Shown: positions 412-60,775, counted from the first letter of the stretch. The stretch: DNA of 64,000 bases from Pseudomonadota bacterium (GCA_039714975.1 JBDLIH010000003.1:10197-74196); one strand, 5' to 3'. Program-made: numbers and translations. The notes: generated by a model from the sequence alone, not told the origin.

Positions 412-1512
412 ATGAAATTCAGCATACAAAGAGAAGCGTTATTAAAACCTCTTCAACATGTCATCGGTGTTGTTGAACGACGTCAGACATTACCTGTATT
501 GGGCAATGTGTTATTGAATGCCACCAGGAAAAATATACGCCTGACGGCAACCGACCTGGAGGTTGAACTGCAGGCACAGGTAGCGGTGTCTGTTACGGAA
601 ACCGGTGACATCACCTTGCCGGCGCGCAAGCTGCTTGATATTTGCCGGACCTTGCCTGAAGAAGCCCAGCTGGATATTTCTGTCAAAAAGGACCGTGCCC
701 TGGTGAGTTCAGGCAAGAGCCGTTTCACGCTGTCGACATTGCCGGCCACAGAATTCCCTGTCATTGATAAAATAAAAAGTGCCCGAAAATTTTCGTTACC
801 CGAAAAACAGCTGCACAGTTTGATTGAAAGTACCGGCTTTGCGATGGCACAGCAGGATGTCCGTTATTACCTGAACGGACTGATGCTGGAACCCGATGGT
901 GCCGTGTTGCGTGCAGTCGCGACGGATGGTCATCGGCTCGCACTTTGTAACCTGGCGACCGATGTGGGTGAGGGCGTTAATCAGCAGGTCATCGTACCGC
1001 GTAAGGGGGTACAGGAATTACTGCGCCTGCTGGAACAGAGAGACGCCGAACTGGATATCGAAATCGGCAGTAACCATATTCGCATTACCACCAGTGAATT
1101 GCGTTTCACCTCTAAACTGATCGATGGACGATTTCCTGATTATCAACGTGTCATCCCCAAAGATCTCGACAAAAAACTGTTAATCAATCGCGACTCGCTA
1201 CGCCAGGCATTGACACGCACATCAATTCTGTCCAATGAAAAATATCGTGGGATTCGTCTTGATATATCTAAAAATAACATTAAAATACAAGCACATAACC
1301 CAGAGCAAGAAGAGGCTGTCGAAGAAATCGATGCCACCTATGATTACGATCCGATCGTGATTGGCTTTAATGTGACCTATCTGCTGGAAGTGCTCAACGT
1401 CCTTGATTCAGACGAGGTGGAAGTCTTCCTGAGTGATGCCAATAGCAGCGCTGTGATCAACCGACCGGGTAATGATGACTGTCGATATGTGGTCATGCCG
1501 ATGCGGTTGTAG
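412..1512 (+). CDS. dnaN: DNA polymerase III beta sliding clamp
   Basis: 366 aa. N-terminus MKFSIQREALLKPLQHVIGVVERRQTLPVLGNVLL is typical of DnaN, and the position after dnaA fits. Confidence 0.95.
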   Translation: MKFSIQREALLKPLQHVIGVVERRQTLPVLGNVLLNATRKNIRLTATDLEVELQAQVAVSVTETGDITLPARKLLDICRTLPEEAQLDISVKKDRALVSSGKSRFTLSTLPATEFPVIDKIKSARKFSLPEKQLHSLIESTGFAMAQQDVRYYLNGLMLEPDGAVLRAVATDGHRLALCNLATDVGEGVNQQVIVPRKGVQELLRLLEQRDAELDIEIGSNHIRITTSELRFTSKLIDGRFPDYQRVIPKDLDKKLLINRDSLRQALTRTSILSNEKYRGIRLDISKNNIKIQAHNPEQEEAVEEIDATYDYDPIVIGFNVTYLLEVLNVLDSDEVEVFLSDANSSAVINRPGNDDCRYVVMPMRL

Positions 1513-1701
1513 TGAGATTTACCTAAGTCCGACAGGCTCCCGGGTTGCGTTCGTCCAGAAAGAATAACTCTCGCCAAGACGCCAAGATCGCAAAGTTGTA
1601 ACTGATCGTCATCAAAAGTATACAAAAATTTTTCTTGGCATCTTTGCGCCTTTGCGAGAGACATTCCAGCGTTTATCGATAGACACAGTGGATAGTTACC
1701 C

Positions 1702-5260
<3,559 letters not shown>

Positions 5261-5337
5261 CATTAGCCGGATATTGTCTTGGTAAGAAGAAATATAGATA
5301 TTATCTTATTAAATTTAATGTAATTAATGTTAATTAT

Positions 5338-5355
5338 AACCCTATTTATAGGGTT
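5338..5355. repeat. Perfect palindrome AACCCTAT-TT-ATAGGGTT inside a 160-bp AT-rich spacer between convergent gyrB and plsC
   Basis: Read directly. The 8-bp arms are exact reverse complements, and the surrounding sequence 5261-5420 is about 80% AT. Confidence 0.6.
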
Positions 5356-5421
5356 TACATTAATATTATTTCTGGTAATTATTTTACCCGTGCAGGAGCA
5401 CCTTGCAGCATGTACATGGGC

Positions 5422-6171
5422 TTACTTAAGCGTCGTGATCTCGGCCATGCGGGCTTCAATCCAGTCGGCGGCTTCATTCAGGATCTGTTGAGCTGATTTT
5501 CCGGCGGGATCAATCGCCGCGCCGATGCGGACCTGAATGACACCCGGACGCTTGATGAAACTGCGCCGTGGCCAGTACTCACCGGCATTGTGTGCAACCG
5601 GGATAATGGGATAACCGGTTTGATCTGCCAGCACGGCACCCCCGATGCGGTAGCGACCGCGTTGTCCAGCCGGGATCCGGGTACCTTCCGGGAAGATCAC
5701 GATCCAGATACCTTCGTCCAGTCTGGTCTTGCCCTGTGTTACCAATTGTTTGACCGCAGCCTTGCCCGTGCCGCGTTTGATGTGAATGCATTTCATCAGG
5801 GCAAGGCCCCAGCCAAAAAACGGTATCCACATCAATTCACGTTTGGCCACCCACACCTGTAGCGGAAAGATTTGCTGCAGCGCAATGGTCTCCCAGGTCG
5901 ACTGGTGCTTGGAAAAAACGATGCCGGCCTCCGGGGTGATATGTTCATTGCCCTGAACCTCGTGAGTAAGCTTGCAGGTGACCTTCAGCCACCAGAGGAT
6001 AAAGTGCACCCATATCTGTACCAGTTGCCAGCGTGTATTGAGTGAAAAAAACACGGTAAACAGCAGCAGACTGGCAAAAATGACCAGTGAAACAGGGAAC
6101 ACAATCCAGAACGCCAGTGAGCGTAACCAGAGTACGGGGTAGGGGGAGTTGTCAGGGGTTGTGGAGGCCAT
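5422..6171 (-). CDS. plsC: 1-acyl-sn-glycerol-3-phosphate acyltransferase (lysophosphatidic acid acyltransferase)
   Basis: The conserved acyltransferase body has an HxxxxD-type region and a FPEGTR motif. The likely start is the internal Met of MASTTPDN (6171) rather than the ORF start at 6237. Confidence 0.8.
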   Translation of the reverse strand: MASTTPDNSPYPVLWLRSLAFWIVFPVSLVIFASLLLFTVFFSLNTRWQLVQIWVHFILWWLKVTCKLTHEVQGNEHITPEAGIVFSKHQSTWETIALQQIFPLQVWVAKRELMWIPFFGWGLALMKCIHIKRGTGKAAVKQLVTQGKTRLDEGIWIVIFPEGTRIPAGQRGRYRIGGAVLADQTGYPIIPVAHNAGEYWPRRSFIKRPGVIQVRIGAAIDPAGKSAQQILNEAADWIEARMAEITTLK

Positions 6172-7106: not shown

Positions 7107-9182
7107 TCATCCGTGGAGCAGGGATATGTCGGCTACCTGTAGAAACAGATCAGACAGCGCCTGCAGCAGGGCGAGTCGATTGTCGCGTAACGCCTCGTCA
7201 TCCGCCATGACCATCACGTTATCAAAAAAGGCATCCACCGGTGTTTGCAAGGCAGCCAGTTTGCACAAGGCGCTGGTGTAGTCCCGCTGTTTGAACAAGG
7301 GCGTTGTCAGTGTGTCCAGTTCTTCCAGCGCGGCTGCAAGCGCCTGTTCCGCGGGTTCCTGAAACAGGGTCTTGTCGTAATGCCCTGGAATGGCAGTCTC
7401 GGCCTTGCGCAGAATATTACGGATACGTTTGTTGGCTGCTGACAGGCTGTCGGCTTCAGACAGGTCACGAAATGTCCTGACTGCGCGCATGCGTTGATCA
7501 AAGTCCAGCGGCCGTGTCGGTTGACGTGCGAGCACGGCTTCAAACACATGCACTTCATAGCCGGCATCCAGATACCAGGCACGCAGGCGCTCCATCATGA
7601 AGGCAAACAGGTCGTTACTTATATTCGCTGCCTCCAGTCCTTCCGGAAATTGCAACGTGGCAGTTTCGATCAGGAGGCGCAGGTCCAGGTCGAGTTGTTT
7701 CTCTATCAGGATACGCAGCAGCCCGAGCGCCGAACGTCGCAGTCCGAACGGGTCCCTGTCGCCGGTCGGCCGCTGACCAATGGCAAAGATACCCGTGAGG
7801 GTATCCAGTCGTTCAGCAATTGCCAGTGCCTGCCCGGTAGCCGTTGCCGGCAGCTCATCACCTGCATGTCGTGGTTGATACTGTTCATCCAGTGCCATCG
7901 CAACTTCACTGGCCTCACCGTCATGGCCTGCATAATAGCGTCCCATGATGCCCTGTAATTTCGGGAACTCGTTCACCATGCTGGTCAGCAGGTCTGACTT
8001 GCATAAGTGAGCCGCACGTTCAGCATGCGATACGCTTGATCCGATGGCCGCGGCAATATCCGTGGCGATGGTCTTGATACGCTCCTGTTTCATGAGCAGC
8101 GAACCGAGTTGCTTCTGGAAGATAACGCCGTCCAGCATGGATAAACGGTCTTCAAGTGACTGCTTGCGATCCTGCTCCCAGAAGAACGCGGCATCCTCCA
8201 GACGTGGCCGGATGACGCGCTCGTTGCCGGCCTTTATCTGCTCCGGGTCCTTGCTGGCGATATTGGCGACCGTGATGAAGTGAGGCAGCAGATTGCCCTG
8301 CTCATCGACCACGGGAAAATACTTCTGGTGGTCCTGCATGCTGGAAATCAGGGCTTCTGCCGGGACCTCGAGAAAGCGCGGGTCATAACTGCCGCTGATG
8401 GCAACCGGCCATTCCACCAGTGCGGTGACTTCGTCCAGTAATGCTGTATCAATCAGGGTCTGACCACCGAGTGCAGCACCGGCCTCGGTGATCTGGGTGC
8501 GGATGGACTCGCGCCGCCGTTCCATGTCCACCTCGACCATGCCATCCTGTTCCAGCGTCTCGGCATAGGCGCCTGGCGTGGTGATCTCGATGGGCTTGTT
8601 GTGATGAAAGCGGTGTCCACGAGAGTAACGGTCACTGTCGACGCCAAGGATGTTTGCAGCCACGGGTTCCTCACCAAACAGCAGTACTACCCAGTGTAGC
8701 GGGCGCACAAATTCAATCTCTGAATTGCCCCAGCGCATCCGCTTTGGCATTGGTAATGCTTTCAGTGCCTTTTCAAGCAATGCGGGAATGATGTCTGTGG
8801 CGGCCTTGCCGGTCTCGGTGCTTTTGTATACCAGCCAGCTTCCCCTGGCGGTCTGCATCTCTTCCAGGTCGCTGACCACTACGCCGCAGGAGCGTGCGAA
8901 GCCTTCGGCCGGCCTGGTGGGATTACCCTCGGCATCAAAGGCGGCTTTCACTGCCGGGCCGCGTTTCATTATGTCACGGTCGGCTTGTGCGACGGGTACG
9001 TCCCTGATGACCACTGCCAGCCGGCGCGGTGTGGCATAGGCATGGCTGTCACCGTGTGCCAGGCCATTTTCATCCAGTTGTGTATCCAGCAAAGACTGCA
9101 GGGCATCACGCATGTGGCCCAGTGCCCCTGGAGGCAATTCCTCGGTACCGATCTCGATCAGCAGGTCACGGGTCGCCGTCAT
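7107..9182 (-). CDS. glyS: Glycine--tRNA ligase beta subunit
   Basis: 691 aa; N-terminus [21 protein letters not shown] is typical of GlyS; its stop overlaps the glyQ start. Confidence 0.93.
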
Positions 9183-12014: not shown

Positions 12015-12244
12015 GCATTACGGTCGTCGATGCACGTAATCTGCTTTGTCCGCTCCCCGTCATCAGGACACAGGACAGCGTCGCAAAACTGCAGCCGGGT
12101 GATGTGGTCCAGGTGCTGTGTACCGACCCGGGTGTTGTCCATGACATCCCGGCCTGGTGCAGGGTGCATGGGCATGAAGTGCGCGCAATAAAGGAACGGG
12201 AATATGAAATTATTATCGATATTCGCGTGGGTAGCGGCGGCTAG
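12011..12244 (+). CDS. TusA-like sulfur carrier protein
   Basis: 77 aa with the LLCPLPV (CPxP) active-site motif of the TusA/SirA family. Its GTG start overlaps the upstream stop in a GTGA junction. Confidence 0.75.
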   Translation: MSITVVDARNLLCPLPVIRTQDSVAKLQPGDVVQVLCTDPGVVHDIPAWCRVHGHEVRAIKEREYEIIIDIRVGSGG

Positions 12245-12251
12245 CTGAATC

Positions 12252-13424
12252 ATGGGACATTCACATTTACCGGATTCGCTTGACGCGCGTTACCTGCACG
12301 TCCGCAAGGTGACGCTGATTGGTGCGGTTGTCGACCTGCTACTGGGCGTGGCGAAGATTGTTGTCGGTGTCACGGCGGGTTCACAGGCACTGGTTGCCGA
12401 TGGCATACACTCATTCTCCGATCTGGCGACTGACTTCCTGGTGCTGTTCGCTGCCAAGCACGCGCATCGCGAGGCCGATACCGAGCACCCCTACGGCCAT
12501 GGTCGTATTGAGACGGTTGCCACGGTGGTGCTGGGCGTGGCGCTGGTGCTGGTTGCCATTGGCATAGCCTGGGATGCGGCACGGCGCTTGCTGGATCAGG
12601 ATTTGCTGCTGCATCCGGGCTGGCTGGCGCTGGTCGTGGCCGTGATCTCGGTGTTGTCTAAAGAGGTGATTTACCACTACACGGCACGGGCAGCGCGCCG
12701 GCTGCGTTCAAAGATGTTGCTCGCCAATGCCTGGCACAGTCGCAGTGATGCCATTTCATCCATCATTGTGGTTATCGGTGTATTGGGTACGATGGCGGGT
12801 TATCCCTACCTGGATGCGGTTGCGGCTATTGCGGTTGGCCTGATGATTGCGAAGATCGGTTGGGAGCTGTTGTGGAAGAGTCTGCAGGAGTTGATCGATA
12901 GCGCGCTGGATCCGGAACAGGTCGAGGCGATACGCAGGACCATCATGGCGGTTGACGGTGTGCGTGCCTGTCATATGCTACGTACACGCCATAGTGGCAG
13001 CGACGCACTGGTGGATGTACATATCCTGGTTGATCCGGTATTGAGTGTCTCGGAGGGGCATCAGATTGGTGAAGCCGTTCGCGGGCACCTGATAGAGACC
13101 ATGGAAAATATCTCGGACGTCACGGTGCATATTGATCCCGAGGATGATGAGCGTGCCTCGCCCTGTCACGATTTGCCGTTACGGGATGAAATTCTGCGGC
13201 GACTCGAACAGCAGTGGCAGCCCCTGGGTATCGGGGAGCGACTCGACAAGGTCGTGCTGCATTACCTGGACGGCAAGGTCCATATCGATGTGTTCCTGAA
13301 GGACGGCGGCCAGGAGCTACAACAGCTGGTTAAACTGACCAGGCTGATACGTGAAGCGGCACATAAGGCGCAGGATATCGGTGATGTCAATGTCTATATC
13401 CAGCACCAGCGCGCACAATTATAG
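12252..13424 (+). CDS. Cation diffusion facilitator family transporter (FieF/YiiP-like) with a C-terminal extension
   Basis: 390 aa. Six TM helices with CDF signature HSFSDLATD and H/D-rich motifs, a cytoplasmic C-terminal domain and an extra roughly 80-aa tail. Confidence 0.85.
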   Translation: MGHSHLPDSLDARYLHVRKVTLIGAVVDLLLGVAKIVVGVTAGSQALVADGIHSFSDLATDFLVLFAAKHAHREADTEHPYGHGRIETVATVVLGVALVLVAIGIAWDAARRLLDQDLLLHPGWLALVVAVISVLSKEVIYHYTARAARRLRSKMLLANAWHSRSDAISSIIVVIGVLGTMAGYPYLDAVAAIAVGLMIAKIGWELLWKSLQELIDSALDPEQVEAIRRTIMAVDGVRACHMLRTRHSGSDALVDVHILVDPVLSVSEGHQIGEAVRGHLIETMENISDVTVHIDPEDDERASPCHDLPLRDEILRRLEQQWQPLGIGERLDKVVLHYLDGKVHIDVFLKDGGQELQQLVKLTRLIREAAHKAQDIGDVNVYIQHQRAQL

Positions 13425-57595: not shown

Positions 57596-57888
57596 CTACA
57601 GTTTACCGTGACCGGTGAGCGTGGTCAGTTAGAATCTTATCGATGACGACCCGGTTTATTAAGAGCCTATAAAACACATTATTATCAATAGGATAAGCTA
57701 TATGTTCCACGCGTGTGATGAGTGCTAAAGATTGTCATCCTGGCGCCGATAGCCAATTCAGACAGTGATTCAATAGTGCACTGTGACATGGTTCCTGAAA
57801 TATGAAGGCAGTACAGGATCTATCTCAGAGAAGATTTTGTCATGCACAGCAGTAGAAAGGCTCCTCCGACGCTGAAAAGCGTTTTCAA

Positions 57889-57912
57889 CCCGCCGAAAGG
57901 CGGGTTTTTTTT
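57889..57912 (+). terminator. Rho-independent terminator-like hairpin (CCCGCC-GAAA-GGCGGG + T8), possibly bidirectional
   Basis: A perfect 6-bp GC stem with a GAAA tetraloop and an 8-T run on the plus strand. It lies 26 bp downstream of the minus-strand cytochrome c gene stop. Confidence 0.6.
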
Positions 57913-57937: not shown

Positions 57938-58354
57938 CTAGTGTTTCCCCGGGGACATTGCCACGCCGCGGCGTTCGAAATTGATATAGGCCTGCAGTGC
58001 AATCATCTTTGCATCATCAGCGGCCAATGGATCACTCTCCAGCGGATTCATGATGCACCAGTTAATCATCTCCCACTGTTGTGCGACCTTGCCCAGTTGT
58101 TGCTGGAACTTGGGATAGGTCTCAGGGTGTGTGTTGCTGGCATTCGGGTGGCACTGATCGCAGGACATGGTATTGGCATTCCCGAGTCCACCGTGAAAAA
58201 GTTTTTCACCTTGTTGTACCACTGATTCAAATTCCGCCTGCCAGCGACCCAGATCTCCCCGGGTAAATTCATCTGCAGCGGCTGTCGACAGAACGCTAAT
58301 GGCGAAAGCTGTGACTACAGTACGAATGCCTGTCCGTGTGATGCGTGTATGCAT
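57938..58354 (-). CDS. Periplasmic monoheme c-type cytochrome
   Basis: Signal peptide; single CxxCH (CDQCH); 138 aa. Confidence 0.7.
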   Translation of the reverse strand: MHTRITRTGIRTVVTAFAISVLSTAAADEFTRGDLGRWQAEFESVVQQGEKLFHGGLGNANTMSCDQCHPNASNTHPETYPKFQQQLGKVAQQWEMINWCIMNPLESDPLAADDAKMIALQAYINFERRGVAMSPGKH

Positions 58355-58370
58355 GATTATTTCCCCGGAA

Positions 58371-59444
58371 CTAGTAGTTGTCTTGTGGCGGTATACGTTT
58401 GTCGGTTGCCTGGTATTGAGTGTCTACCGGGTGTCCGAGTTTGCTGTCATAGGCGACAACACGATTGCGGTTGTCCGGCAACTGATAATTAGCGGCCACA
58501 TCACCATTTGCCATGTTAATGAACTGCCAGCCGGTGGCATCCCTTTCAAAGAACGGGTCGGCGCGATTCATTTCCACGGTAAGCCTGGGTAGCAATGATG
58601 CTTGTTGGCTGTATGTTGCCGGGTAGGGCCACGGCCAGGCGGTAGCCATGGCGGCATGGAAACTGATGTTGCCAATCTGGTTGGTCTGAATCTGGTGTAC
58701 ATGACCATACAGCACAGTGACCTTGTCAAACGGTTTCAGCAGCGCCTGCACCTGTTCGGCATCATCGGTCCAGAAGTTCCAGCCCTTGTAGATCTTTTGC
58801 AGCGGGGAATGTGACAGTACAACCAGTGGTGTGTCCTCACTGACCTTGCCGAGGTCCTCCTGCAACCAGTCGCGCTGTGCCTTGCCTACCATGAACGGCG
58901 AACCTTGCGGATTGTCCAGGCGAGCCATCTGGCCCATACGTTCCTTGCCACTGGACCATTTGTCATACATCCAGTCGTCGAATGTCAGAATGCTGTTAAG
59001 CACGACAAAGTGCACACCCTTGTGATCGAAACTGTAGTGGTCGGGACCGAGTTGTTTGCGCCAGTATTCACCGAGGTCCAGGTAGTAGTCATGTTCGCCC
59101 ATGACGTAGTAGGTTTTATCACGCAGGCCGGAGAGTATTTCCAGGCCGTGGTCGATTTCCTCTTTTTTGCCCAGTTGGGCAATGTCGCCACCATAAAATA
59201 CGAAGTCAGGCCGCGGATCCATCAGATTGGTTTCAGCTACGGCCCGTATCAAGCCACGGTCCCAGTTACGTACAAACTGATTGTCCTTGATATGGGTAAT
59301 GTGCGAGTCCGAGATATAGGCAAAGGTAAAGTTCTGTGAATTGTTTTTTCCAAAGGCAACTTCTACCAGGCTGAGTGGCAGAGTGCTGGCAGCCAGGACT
59401 GCACCGCCCTGCTTGAGAAAACTGCGCCGATTAATTTTTTTCAT
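58371..59444 (-). CDS. TAT-exported calcineurin-like metallophosphoesterase
   Basis: Twin-arginine motif NRRSFLKQGG. Metallophosphoesterase motifs (DSH, GGD, GEHD, VLSHSP, GHVH). The start is taken at MKKINRRSF. Confidence 0.7.
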   Translation of the reverse strand: MKKINRRSFLKQGGAVLAASTLPLSLVEVAFGKNNSQNFTFAYISDSHITHIKDNQFVRNWDRGLIRAVAETNLMDPRPDFVFYGGDIAQLGKKEEIDHGLEILSGLRDKTYYVMGEHDYYLDLGEYWRKQLGPDHYSFDHKGVHFVVLNSILTFDDWMYDKWSSGKERMGQMARLDNPQGSPFMVGKAQRDWLQEDLGKVSEDTPLVVLSHSPLQKIYKGWNFWTDDAEQVQALLKPFDKVTVLYGHVHQIQTNQIGNISFHAAMATAWPWPYPATYSQQASLLPRLTVEMNRADPFFERDATGWQFINMANGDVAANYQLPDNRNRVVAYDSKLGHPVDTQYQATDKRIPPQDNY

Positions 59445-60609
59445 GGGTTTTCTCCTTGCCGGCTGCTGCTGAGGCCAGGTGTGCATATTCCGGGCTGGTT
59501 AATGCATTGAGGAAATTAACCAGGTCAGTTTGTTCATCCTCGGTCAGTTCCAGGGGTTTAATGCCGCCACTCATGAACGGCGACAGGGGATCGCTCTCTT
59601 TTTCACGGCCGCCGTTGTTGTAAAACGTTACTACATCATCAAGCGTCTTCAGGCTGCCGTCATGCATGTAGGGCTGTGTGACTGCTATATTTCTCAGTGT
59701 GGGGGTCTTGAAAGCGCCGACCTGTGTGGGATTCTCGGTCACGGCGAAGCGCCCCAGTTCGGACATGTTTTCCTGTGTCAGCACGGTAACATCCACATCT
59801 GCACCTTTTCGTTTTGCCTTTATGAGTGCTGCAGCCGTGACTGCTTCCTTGCCTTGCACACGCTTGAAGCCGACACCGATATTATGAAACCGGTTGTCGG
59901 TGAACAGGGCTGTCGTTTGTTCGATGCGGTGGCAGGACACGCAGCGTCCCTTGCCAAGAAACAGGGAGAGACCACGTTGCTGTGAATCATTCAGTGCCTC
60001 TGTTTCTCCACCATACTGGTAGCGATCAAAGGGTGAGTTCCCCGCGATAACAGTACGTTCAAATGAAGCGATGGCCTTTGCAACATGATCCATGGTGATG
60101 CCATCGCCACTTTTTCCGAACACCTTTTTAAACTGTCGGATATATTCAGGGTCGCTGCGGACGACTTCAAGAATCGGGTCGTAGTCCTTCAGTCCCATTT
60201 CAACCGGGTTAAGCGGCGGCTGTATTGACTGTCCCTCGAGATCAGGTTCACGACCATCCCAGAACTGGGTCTGCATGTAGGCGGAATTTATCACCGTGGG
60301 TGCATTGCGGGTGCCGGTGAGTTTATGAATGCCTTCGGAAACACGCAGGTTGTCAGTGAAGCCTTTTTCACGTGCATGGCATGTGCTGCAACTGACTTCA
60401 GCGGTAGCACTGAAGCGCGTGTCATGAAACAGTTTGTCACCCAGCTTTATTTTATTTTCTGTCTGCGGGTTGTCTGCGGGAACGGGAACTTCGGGCAGGC
60501 CCAGCGGTGCAGCCTGTGCAAGGCCGGCAAAGGATGCCAGCAAAAGGGGGTATAACAGTCGGTTCATGTCAGCTCCTGATGCTCTATGGACGCGATTGGT
60601 GGCCATCAC
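59431..60609 (-). CDS. Di-heme cytochrome c peroxidase family protein (CcpA/MauG family)
   Basis: Signal peptide; two CxxCH motifs (CSTCH, CVSCH); the typical length and GREP/FDRY-type motifs of bacterial CCPs. Confidence 0.85.
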   Translation of the reverse strand: MMATNRVHRASGADMNRLLYPLLLASFAGLAQAAPLGLPEVPVPADNPQTENKIKLGDKLFHDTRFSATAEVSCSTCHAREKGFTDNLRVSEGIHKLTGTRNAPTVINSAYMQTQFWDGREPDLEGQSIQPPLNPVEMGLKDYDPILEVVRSDPEYIRQFKKVFGKSGDGITMDHVAKAIASFERTVIAGNSPFDRYQYGGETEALNDSQQRGLSLFLGKGRCVSCHRIEQTTALFTDNRFHNIGVGFKRVQGKEAVTAAALIKAKRKGADVDVTVLTQENMSELGRFAVTENPTQVGAFKTPTLRNIAVTQPYMHDGSLKTLDDVVTFYNNGGREKESDPLSPFMSGGIKPLELTEDEQTDLVNFLNALTSPEYAHLASAAAGKEKTHEKN

Positions 60610-60775
60610 CTGGGCTGCTTAAGAGCATAGAACTGGAACTAGAATAAGTCTAGTACTATTTACAACTAATTATAATATCAATATTAATATTCTATATGTT
60701 CTGGAAAATCAACCGATTATCCGGTTCTGCCGTACCGCAGGTAGTCCTGGCAGGAAGGAGAAATCTCCAGGGTTC

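Follow-up and report, generated by a model that had tools for sequence, protein, structure and literature searches.

Gene content and organization of the locus

We studied a group of three genes in a 64,000-nucleotide stretch of DNA from a Pseudomonadota bacterium (GCA_039714975.1 JBDLIH010000003.1:10197-74196); this whole stretch, which derives from the metagenome-assembled genome of an uncultured member of the phylum, is called the window below. The trio lies within positions 57,938 to 60,609, counted from the first letter of the window, and codes for a di-heme protein of the superfamily of cytochrome c peroxidases (CCP) and MauG, a metallophosphoesterase (MPE) with a twin-arginine (TAT) signal, and a small cytochrome c. 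A scan for open reading frames (ORFs) gave three co-directional ORFs on the minus strand, listed here from the first gene to the last.

59431..60567, minus strand: predicted MauG-type di-heme enzyme of the CCP/MauG family, precursor of 378 aa with a Sec signal peptide (Pfam CCP_MauG)
58371..59444, minus strand: predicted TAT-exported dimetal protein of the MPE fold, 357 aa, with motif III GEHD in place of GNHD (Pfam Metallophos)
57938..58354, minus strand: predicted SoxA/TsdA-type monoheme cytochrome c, 138 aa, with a Sec signal (Pfam SoxA-TsdA_cyt-c)

The maximal ORF of the first gene extends over 59431..60609, with a GTG at 60609 that is a less likely start. The true start is likely the ATG at 60567, which is preceded by AGGAG 8 nt upstream and gives an N terminus, MNRLLYPLLLASFAGLAQA, with the character of a signal peptide. 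The second gene begins with the ATG at 59444, after AAGGAG, has the N terminus MKKINRRSFLKQGG, and stops at 58371. The first gene ends with a stop codon at 59433-59431 and thereby shares exactly 14 nt with the second, and the third gene starts at 58354, 17 nt past the stop of the second. The number and direction of the genes, the motifs, the TAT signal, and the overlap were all correct in the initial annotation, as judged from the ORFs, the DNA reading, and Pfam. With its own upstream region and its own terminator hairpin (see below), the trio is one compact operon for three periplasmic proteins.

Conservation and distribution of the trio

The species-representative genomes of GTDB gave 599 matching stretches, and at least 566 of them encode a relative of the MPE. 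The best 80 (66 to 83% MPE identity) were taken as the cassette loci to which the counts below refer unless another set is named. In every one of these 80 loci, wherever the contig reaches, the genes for the di-heme protein, the MPE, and the cytochrome stand in the same order and on one strand, an arrangement that is far beyond chance. The initial annotation had named a lack of co-occurrence in other genomes as a result that would speak against its reading; this is clearly not the case, since the co-occurrence of the three genes across the 80 loci is essentially perfect.

The hosts belong to several phyla. They include Gammaproteobacteria (Thiohalobacter, Thiogranum, Woeseiaceae, Sedimenticola, Steroidobacter, Povalibacter, Nevskia, Lysobacterales, Methylobacter, Methylomicrobium, and Competibacteraceae), Betaproteobacteria (Sulfuriferula and Methylophilaceae), Desulfobacterota (Desulfobulbaceae, Syntrophaceae, and Desulfuromonas), Acidobacteriota, Latescibacteria, and Krumholzibacteriota. 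Pairwise distances are correlated among the three proteins (r = 0.60 to 0.75), and the MPE is the slowest evolving of them, with a mean distance of 0.29 versus 0.40 and 0.42. The three genes are passed on together, both by descent and by transfer, in many phyla. Database relatives of the MPE number 4,606, and the best 120 share 75 to 90% identity and are nearly all 354 to 359 aa long.

Some loci depart from the standard arrangement. On plasmid pDSM21852-1 of Methylocystis bryophila (L171), an orphan MPE gene (4935-6011; 63% identity to the MPE of the window) adjoins fragments of an IS110 transposase, and no gene for a di-heme protein or a cytochrome lies within 5 kb of it. We saw no other broken cassette. 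In Thiohalobacter thiocyanaticus (L021), 5 kb downstream of the intact trio, there is a degenerate second copy (12057-12914, minus strand) that covers the 3' portion of the MPE gene together with the beginning of the cytochrome gene. We considered it as a divergent paralogue and rejected this, as it is a frameshifted duplicate, that is, a pseudogene remnant. In Lysobacterales (L027 7689-8702, L031 7734-8744, and L045 5776-6786), a second, divergent di-heme CCP gene (ca. 32% identity to the first) is found just past the cytochrome gene. The protein P0296 (567 aa) is nearly identical to the cassette MPE over its first ca. 115 residues and continues with unrelated Cys-rich sequence containing heme motifs, and it probably reflects a chimera made in assembly or gene calling.

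The di-heme protein has the residues of a MauG-type enzyme

The two heme motifs of the first protein are CSTCH (60390-60376) and CVSCH (59943-59929). Its membership in the superfamily is clear from the Pfam CCP_MauG profile (PF03150; 5e-58, 196 bits versus a cutoff of 25.6 bits), and the best matches among solved structures were BthA (6e1c; 1e-49) and MacA (4aal; 1e-48), with MauG itself (3l4m) at 3.5e-31. Canonical and MauG-type enzymes are told apart by the sixth ligand of the E-heme, which is Met in the former and Tyr in the latter, and Tyr lowers the potential of the E-heme (PMC11892367). In our alignment, Tyr316 (59622-59620, in the context VVTFY) stands where MacA has its Met ligand, and in the phmmer alignment to 3l4m, it falls exactly on Tyr294 of MauG (tfYnn in the window protein, lfY294n in MauG).

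Tyr316 is conserved in all 75 cassette orthologues compared. The initial annotation had pointed to the Ca site and the Trp between the hemes as features of interest, and both are present. T297 and P299 align with the Ca-site residues Thr275 and Pro277 of MauG; together with N88, also of the Ca site, and the distal residues Q113, P117, and E123, they are invariant in the cassette orthologues. The inter-heme Trp (W103) is kept in 77 of 78. In MauG, the residues that define these features are Trp93, Asn66, Thr275, and Pro277. On the other hand, His81, the candidate for the distal His of canonical enzymes, is not conserved across the family. We ruled out a canonical bacterial CCP, given the Tyr in place of the Met ligand in 75 of 75 orthologues. 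The residues together mark the protein as MauG type, with a predicted His/Tyr ligation of the E-heme. The assignment to the CCP/MauG family made in the initial annotation stood, and it can be narrowed to a predicted MauG-type enzyme with His/Tyr ligation, inter-heme Trp, and Ca-site residues.

Two named members of this type were considered and rejected. Against the MauG equivalog (TIGR03791), the protein scored 204 bits versus a cutoff of 444, there are no mau genes, and the neighbors are hemB and hemF. MbnH (TIGR04039) was the best NCBIfam match, yet it reached only 277 bits versus a cutoff of 363, and the adjoining gene encodes the MPE and not MbnP. As the protein scores below both curated cutoffs, it represents a separate MauG-type clade.

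The metallophosphoesterase represents a distinct clade

The second protein belongs to the MPE superfamily, with 1e-10 and 42.9 bits against Pfam Metallophos (PF00149; cutoff of 21.5 bits), while its match to the Pfam TAT_signal profile remained below the threshold (18.7 bits versus 22.7). The five metal-ligand motifs (DSH, GGD, GEHD, SHSP, and GHVH) are all present and are invariant in 40 orthologues, as are R6 and R7 of the TAT signal and D46, H48, D87, E117, H118, H212, H248, and H250. Four of these motifs are canonical; the exception is motif III, in which GEHD replaces the canonical GNH[D/E]. This Asn-to-Glu exchange is invariant in 121 sequences. Based on these signatures, we place the protein in a distinct, large clade of predicted TAT-exported MPEs marked by GEHD.

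Searches against solved structures gave little direction. A profile built from 40 MPE sequences matched GpdQ (5e-7), purple acid phosphatase (1e-5), and Rv0805 (3e-3), all weakly. A first AlphaFold model, based on 14 close homologues, was unusable, with a mean predicted local distance difference test score (pLDDT) of 45.6. A second one, from 121 sequences including the sister clade described below, reached a pLDDT of 70, with a confident core at residues 40 to 265. The top Foldseek matches of this model in the PDB were GpdQ, Rv0805, and mammalian purple acid phosphatase, generic neighbors within the superfamily that offer no functional clue. The most conserved stretch of the protein (residues 270 to 306, ca. 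58527-58637; WPWPYP...NRADPFFERDATGWQF) has the lowest model confidence, with a pLDDT of <50. Low confidence in the most conserved segment is what we would expect if the segment folds against a partner, and the model suggests that residues 270 to 306 may take up their structure on a partner or a cofactor.

We then compared the MPE with families of known role, and none of them fits. Database entries for its relatives carry the names CpdA or Icc, but the equivalog of this cAMP phosphodiesterase (NF008359) gave 36.9 bits versus a cutoff of 225, over residues 200 to 273 only. Membership in the PhoD family was rejected by profile and structure searches. For a purple acid phosphatase, the Tyr of GDxxY, the Fe(III) tyrosinate ligand of those enzymes, is missing; motif II reads GGDIAQ, with Gln90 at that position, and the profile similarity is confined to residues 185 to 262. 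SoxB, which also carries a twin-arginine signal, shares with the MPE only this signal and the superfamily: at 357 aa, the MPE has no second Pfam domain and lacks the C-terminal 5'-nucleotidase domain.

The small cytochrome resembles the catalytic heme domain of SoxA and TsdA

The third protein has a signal peptide and a single CxxCH motif (CDQCH, 58162-58148). The initial annotation had described it as a small monoheme cytochrome, and the single heme is borne out. What has to be revised is its reading as a plain electron donor: the protein matches the Pfam domain SoxA-TsdA_cyt-c (PF21342) with 7e-12 and 45.6 bits, above the cutoff of 27 bits. Cys100 (58057-58055, in the context NWC), a putative axial ligand, is the same in all 30 homologues compared. 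Searches with the single sequence and with a profile both aligned it with Cys114 of heme 1 in Rhodovulum SoxA (1h31) and with Cys96 of Allochromatium TsdA (4wq7). Counting residues in these alignments returned the published ligand pairs, His80/Cys114 for SoxA and His53/Cys96 for TsdA (the latter in PMC6879331). In SoxA and TsdA, the axial Cys becomes the site of a thiosulfonate adduct with the sulfur substrate; both enzymes have hemes of low potential (PMC6879331).

The C terminus of the cytochrome ends in PGKH, with P135, G136, and H138 invariant and K137 conserved in at least 90% of the homologues. We interpret the protein as a SoxA/TsdA-type domain with a conserved, predicted axial Cys and not as an ordinary electron-donor cytochrome. 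Some sources label it "thiosulfate dehydrogenase." A complete SoxA or TsdA enzyme was rejected on the grounds of the score against SoxA (TIGR04484; 43.5 bits versus a cutoff of 110), the presence of a single heme domain in 138 aa, and the missing conservation of Arg residues.

The MPE-cytochrome pair in sister clades and the wider family

An exhaustive search of 1.84 billion cluster representatives returned 3,125 relatives of the MPE at an E value of <1e-3. The distant relatives that we examined keep the TAT signal and the W-rich motifs, and most of them have GEHD. Several are fused to redox domains, namely, type 1 Cu cupredoxin (P0304 and P0335), a CuA-like domain (P0334), Rieske (P0303), and heme c (P0384). 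A second, very abundant group of MPE genes, from soil metagenomes (L081 to L160), is followed by a cupredoxin, fused or separate, in 72 of 80 loci, often together with a DUF2231 membrane protein, an extracytoplasmic function (ECF) sigma factor, and a zf-HC2 anti-sigma factor. The MPE-cupredoxin arrangement also occurs on the megaplasmid of Ralstonia solanacearum (L173) and in Burkholderia multivorans (L175). Burkholderia relatives from the plasmid collection, which we considered as PhosA-BthA loci (see below), were rejected as such because they are of this MPE-cupredoxin type and have no di-heme gene. Across these groups, the gene neighborhoods and fusions indicate that the GEHD clade of predicted TAT-exported MPEs has, with few exceptions, a small redox protein as its partner.

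A closer sister clade, with 36 to 50% identity, is found in two contexts. In type A, the genes are those of the trio (di-heme gene, MPE, and SoxA-like cytochrome), with 42 to 55% identity, in Thermoguttaceae and four other contigs. In type B, a gene for a cupredoxin-like/CarboxypepD_reg protein is followed by the MPE, the SoxA-like cytochrome, SoxY, and SoxZ, without a di-heme gene. These clusters then carry flavocytochrome c sulfide dehydrogenase (FCSD) and cytochrome c genes or heme-copper oxidase genes, and they were seen at L161, L167, L168/L169, L170, and L172 (the last on a megaplasmid of Sinorhizobium meliloti, with soxY and soxZ annotated by NCBI). The WPWPY motif is conserved in the type B MPE, with no di-heme gene in the operon. 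The two contexts point to the MPE-cytochrome pair as the invariant core of the system, as read from gene content, and to an exchangeable third partner, which is the MauG-type enzyme in type A and SoxYZ plus oxidases in type B.

As a separate observation, the type B clusters, which lack SoxB and SoxX, seem to represent a Sox-like gene set that has not been described before. In ca. 7 type A loci of the Steroidobacter/Povalibacter group (L025, L047, L060, L064 [7566-8000], L065, L067, and L043), the cytochrome gene is directly followed by one for a single-domain rhodanese carrying a signal peptide (Pfam, 1e-19), a possible fourth gene with a link to sulfur transfer.

Peroxide-linked neighbors and a candidate operator

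Neighbors of the cassette were collected by clustering flanking ORFs and by tblastn over the 80 loci. Directly upstream, in ca. 21 to 22 loci, lies a divergent gene for a LysR regulator whose best NCBIfam match, by far, is OxyR (232 bits) and which has the redox motif GHCFRDQ...C. OxyR-type regulation of peroxidases is known. These OxyR-like neighbors are found in Gammaproteobacteria. PerR-like regulators of the Fur family adjoin the cassette in 6 loci, mostly of Desulfobacterota and Acidobacteriota, and genes for a peroxiredoxin and for Dps are nearby in 5 loci each. Counting all four kinds, such a neighbor is present at 33 of the 80 loci. The link to peroxide proposed in the initial annotation thus gains independent backing.

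Upstream of the trio, the window contains an AT-rich spacer with a palindrome, and a hairpin follows the third gene.

60568..60775, minus strand: AT-rich promoter/operator spacer from hemF to the trio, GC content of 42.8%, holding the conserved operator-like motif
60637..60655, minus strand: operator-like motif TACTAGACTTATTCTAGTT, ca. 70 to 85 nt upstream of the start of the di-heme gene
57887..57906, minus strand: G+C-rich hairpin AACCCGCCTTTCGGCGGGTT after the third gene, likely a terminator (8 pairs, 6 of them G-C)

The core of the motif (60653-60639) is the palindrome CTAGAC-N3-TTCTAG, of the T-N11-A type of LysR/OxyR sites, with a further CTA 9 nt downstream. Of 74 loci, 25 have TAGA-N5-TCTA (with at most one mismatch) ahead of the di-heme gene, mostly at 50 to 150 nt, against a background expectation of 0.046 per region. 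TAGAC...TCTA aligns as a block in the otherwise diverged upstream regions of the window and of four cassette loci (L001, L007, L021, and L032), and the extension TAG-N7-CTA-N9-CTA is present in four of these five regions (not in L032). The palindrome is probably an operator of the LysR/OxyR type. A full four-element OxyR site as in Escherichia coli (ATAG-N7-CTAT twice) was rejected, the best match in the window being only 11 of 16 positions and lying in AT-rich DNA; a Fur box in the AT-rich upstream region was a poor match by eye. A sigma-70 consensus scan of the spacer (60568..60775) gave no promoter-like site. At the other end, a T-run on the plus strand and an A-run ahead of the hairpin on the minus strand mean that the hairpin may act in both directions.

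Flanking genes and possible acquisition of the block

The trio is adjoined by hemB (ALAD, 1e-144) and hemF (Coprogen_oxidas, 1e-135), as identified with Pfam, within what is otherwise core chromosome: the window carries dnaN-recF-gyrB, glyQS, and glnA-ntrBC, and later prlC, aroE, hemB, the trio, hemF, tsaC, and topA. Since dnaN, recF, and gyrB are located at 412-5260, the window adjoins the region of the chromosomal replication origin. No Rfam families or tRNA genes were found anywhere in the 64 kb. The GC content is 46.1% and 42.8% in the two spacers, 52.5% in the trio, and 55.5% in the window. An imperfect direct repeat brackets the cassette.

57693..57707, no strand assigned: imperfect 15-nt direct repeat, downstream copy ATAAGCTATATGTTC, matching ATATTCTATATGTTC at 13 of 15 positions with a spacing of 2,994 nt
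60687..60701, no strand assigned: upstream copy of this repeat, in the AT-rich spacer

The repeat may be a trace of insertion or may have arisen by chance. In none of the 80 loci was hemB or hemF found beside the cassette, which implies that the block moves as a unit between contexts. The slightly lower GC content, the AT-rich spacers, the bracketing repeat, and the different context elsewhere would all agree with the block having been acquired as a unit. An insertion had been hinted at in the initial annotation; these observations lend it weak support, but no integrase, transposase, tRNA, or other mobile-element signature was found near the trio.

Comparison with known systems

The closest precedent for the gene pairing is BthA (PDB 6e1c), a protein of cryptic function that is always encoded next to PhosA, a putative exported protein of the purple acid phosphatase type (Rizzolo et al. 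2019, PMC6405878). The initial annotation had remarked that a MauG-like enzyme next to an MPE is not a standard context for a CCP. This was confirmed, yet the pairing of a MauG-type Tyr/His di-heme enzyme with an adjoining phosphatase-like gene, as seen in the window, has a parallel in BthA/PhosA (PMC6405878). The two systems differ in several respects. BthA lacks the inter-heme Trp and the Ca site (PMC11892367), two features that are present in the window protein; phosA comes before bthA, the reverse of the order found here; and no SoxA-like cytochrome has been described for BthA/PhosA, whereas the trio includes one. PhosA is described as purple acid phosphatase-like and exposed at the outer membrane, while the MPE of the window has a TAT signal and no GDxxY Tyr, a comparison made by description only.

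The pairs MauG/preMADH (the precursor of methylamine dehydrogenase) and MbnH/MbnP offer a second point of comparison. The window protein shares with these enzymes the His/Tyr E-heme, the inter-heme Trp, the Ca-site residues, and the distal Gln, Pro, and Glu, and in both systems the partner is encoded next door and the oxidant is H2O2. Unlike them, the window protein scores below both cutoffs and is not accompanied by mau or mbn genes or by MbnP, and the partner pair also exists without the di-heme enzyme. Canonical CCPs (such as CcpA of Pseudomonas and MacA of Geobacter), which have a cytochrome c or a cupredoxin as donor, are likewise periplasmic di-heme proteins of the common superfamily. 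They differ from the trio in the E-heme ligand (Met instead of Tyr), in the conservation of the His corresponding to His81, and in the electron donor, since the candidate here is a low-potential His/Cys heme and not a class I cytochrome.

For the MPE and the cytochrome, the closest comparison is the Sox system (SoxAX, SoxB, and SoxYZ), which likewise combines a His/Cys-type cytochrome with SoxA domains and a TAT-exported dimetal protein of the MPE superfamily; in addition, SoxY and SoxZ are present in the sister-clade clusters. In contrast to Sox, the window cytochrome has a single domain, with neither SoxX nor a second SoxA domain, the MPE lacks the C-terminal 5'-nucleotidase domain, the cassette type has no SoxYZ, and the electron sink is apparently a peroxide-using di-heme enzyme. 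Membership in the Sox multienzyme system was rejected, as no SoxYZ carrier was found in the window or in the 80 loci, only in type B clusters. The catalytic heme domain of TsdA is of the same fold family as the cytochrome, and its Cys ligand (Cys96) aligns with Cys100. TsdA has two hemes, however, where the window cytochrome has one, and its Arg residues after the Cys are not conserved.

Full-text literature searches gave no paper describing the trio, the GEHD clade of MPEs, or the type B clusters. All three proteins fall within known superfamilies, and the system is therefore not categorically new. What is new is the combination, its conservation, and the likely chemistry.

Proposed function and alternative explanations

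Our preferred interpretation, to which we give a probability of roughly 0.4, is a Sox-like catalytic pair, made up of the MPE and the cytochrome, that passes electrons to H2O2 through a low-potential MauG-type enzyme. The His/Cys heme would oxidize a reduced sulfur species (thiosulfate, sulfite, or sulfane sulfur) by two electrons, and this donor would become bound to the heme-ligand Cys, as happens in SoxA and TsdA. The dimetal MPE would then hydrolyze the bound sulfonate to sulfate in the manner of SoxB. From the low-potential His/Cys heme, the electrons would go on to the MauG-type enzyme, whose His/Tyr heme is likewise of low potential, and H2O2 would be reduced there to water. The net result would be a self-contained periplasmic reductant:H2O2 oxidoreductase, induced under peroxide stress; in the sister clade, an oxidase would serve as the electron sink and SoxYZ as the carrier. 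Because the His/Cys and His/Tyr hemes are both of low potential, they make a plausible pair for electron transfer, one into which a high-potential His/Met peroxidase would not fit. It is possible, though on the doubtful side, that the trio as a whole amounts to the use of peroxide as a terminal acceptor for an inorganic, probably sulfur, donor, that is, to a minimal Sox-like pair wired to a MauG-type enzyme.

Several observations speak against this interpretation. We infer every step that leads from the pair to the substrate, and the sulfur donor only from the homology of one domain and the gene neighbors of the sister clade. Many hosts, such as Methylobacter, Steroidobacter, Nevskia, and Acidobacteriota, are not known sulfur oxidizers. 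No homologues of SoxY, SoxZ, or FCSD were found in the window or in the 80 cassette loci. The MPE has no special similarity to SoxB: no SoxB chain was among its PDB profile matches at an E value of ≤0.1 or in the Foldseek top 50. In the aligned cytochrome, the Arg residues that follow the Cys ligand in TsdA are not conserved. Near the trio of the window, there is no OxyR-like gene. The fusions of distant relatives to cupredoxin, CuA-like, Rieske, and heme c domains would fit a redox-active dimetal site better than a pure hydrolase. Finally, MauG-type enzymes are generally poor peroxidases, although BthA turns over H2O2 (PMC11892367, PMC6405878).

An alternative, already raised in the initial annotation, is that the di-heme protein matures a partner, as MauG and MbnH do. 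H2O2 would bring it to the bis-Fe(IV) state, and it would oxidize aromatic or Cys residues of the MPE or the cytochrome at a distance, creating a protein-derived cofactor or metal site, so that the matured MPE-cytochrome complex would be the working enzyme. The protein carries all the sequence hallmarks of the MauG type, with MbnH as its best NCBIfam match, and the known MauG-type enzymes act on the product of the gene next door (preMADH and MbnP, as also proposed for BthA/PhosA; PMC6405878, PMC11892367). MauG-type genes also accompany methanethiol oxidase genes (PMC6548844). In the trio, the first two genes are translationally coupled, and the MPE has an invariant Trp/Tyr-rich segment (WPWPYP...GWQF, residues 270 to 308) that AlphaFold cannot place. 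The sister clade makes us regard this alternative as unlikely. In type B, the WPWPY motif and the whole MPE-cytochrome pair are kept without the di-heme gene, and the pair can therefore work without such a maturase. Moreover, adjacency to OxyR, PerR, peroxiredoxin, and Dps would be unexpected for a biosynthetic maturase, and the scores fall short of the curated cutoffs for MbnH and MauG, as given above.

The electron flow could be the same with a different chemistry at the MPE. A Glu-enriched Fe or Mn site of the MPE might itself oxidize Fe(II), Mn(II), or an oxyanion (sulfite, arsenite, or phosphite), with electrons going to the cytochrome, the di-heme enzyme, and H2O2; a hydrolase fold would have been recruited for redox chemistry, as in the flavodiiron proteins. 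The exchange of the metal-ligand Asn for Glu in motif III, invariant in the 121 sequences and kept as GEHD in most distant relatives, is in keeping with this, as are the fusions just mentioned, the cupredoxin after the MPE in 72 of the 80 soil loci and in Ralstonia and Burkholderia, the cytoplasmic metal loading implied by TAT export, and the Dps neighbor in 5 loci (iron and H2O2 chemistry). Against it, motif III still has its general-acid His and none of the other hydrolase ligands has been lost, and a fused or adjacent electron carrier could serve a partner's reaction instead. We know of no redox enzyme with the MPE fold, and a His/Cys heme has too low a potential to take up electrons from Fe(II) or Mn(II). 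We consider this explanation improbable.

Ordinary peroxide detoxification by a di-heme peroxidase with its cytochrome donor, the MPE being an unrelated phosphodiesterase or phosphatase that shares the operon, would suit the CpdA or Icc annotations, the peroxide-related neighborhood, and the catalytic reduction of H2O2 by BthA (PMC6405878), but it is very unlikely given the score far below the CpdA cutoff, an MPE that is the most conserved member of the trio and never apart from the cytochrome across types A and B, the Tyr in place of Met at the E-heme, and a cytochrome that has a catalytic-type His/Cys domain and is not a class I donor.

Implications

MauG-type di-heme enzymes carry out long-range oxidative chemistry, and few of their substrates are known; the widespread BthA class is still called cryptic. 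The pairing seen in the trio is far more widespread and is conserved very strongly, with 66 to 83% identity of the MPE among the 80 loci, and its partners point to a concrete chemistry, the Sox-like oxidation of Cys-bound sulfur coupled to H2O2. Even if the mechanism proposed here were wrong, the three-gene module is a well-defined target for study. If it is right, the trio would represent a new periplasmic route of peroxide detoxification or respiration at oxic-sulfidic interfaces, present in sulfur oxidizers, methanotrophs, Desulfobulbaceae, Woeseiaceae, and soil bacteria, and it would provide a physiological role for cryptic MauG-type enzymes such as BthA. The GEHD clade of TAT-exported MPEs, with its thousands of members, would then be a new class of redox-coupled dimetal enzymes, and a large family now annotated as the cAMP phosphodiesterase CpdA/Icc would be reassigned.

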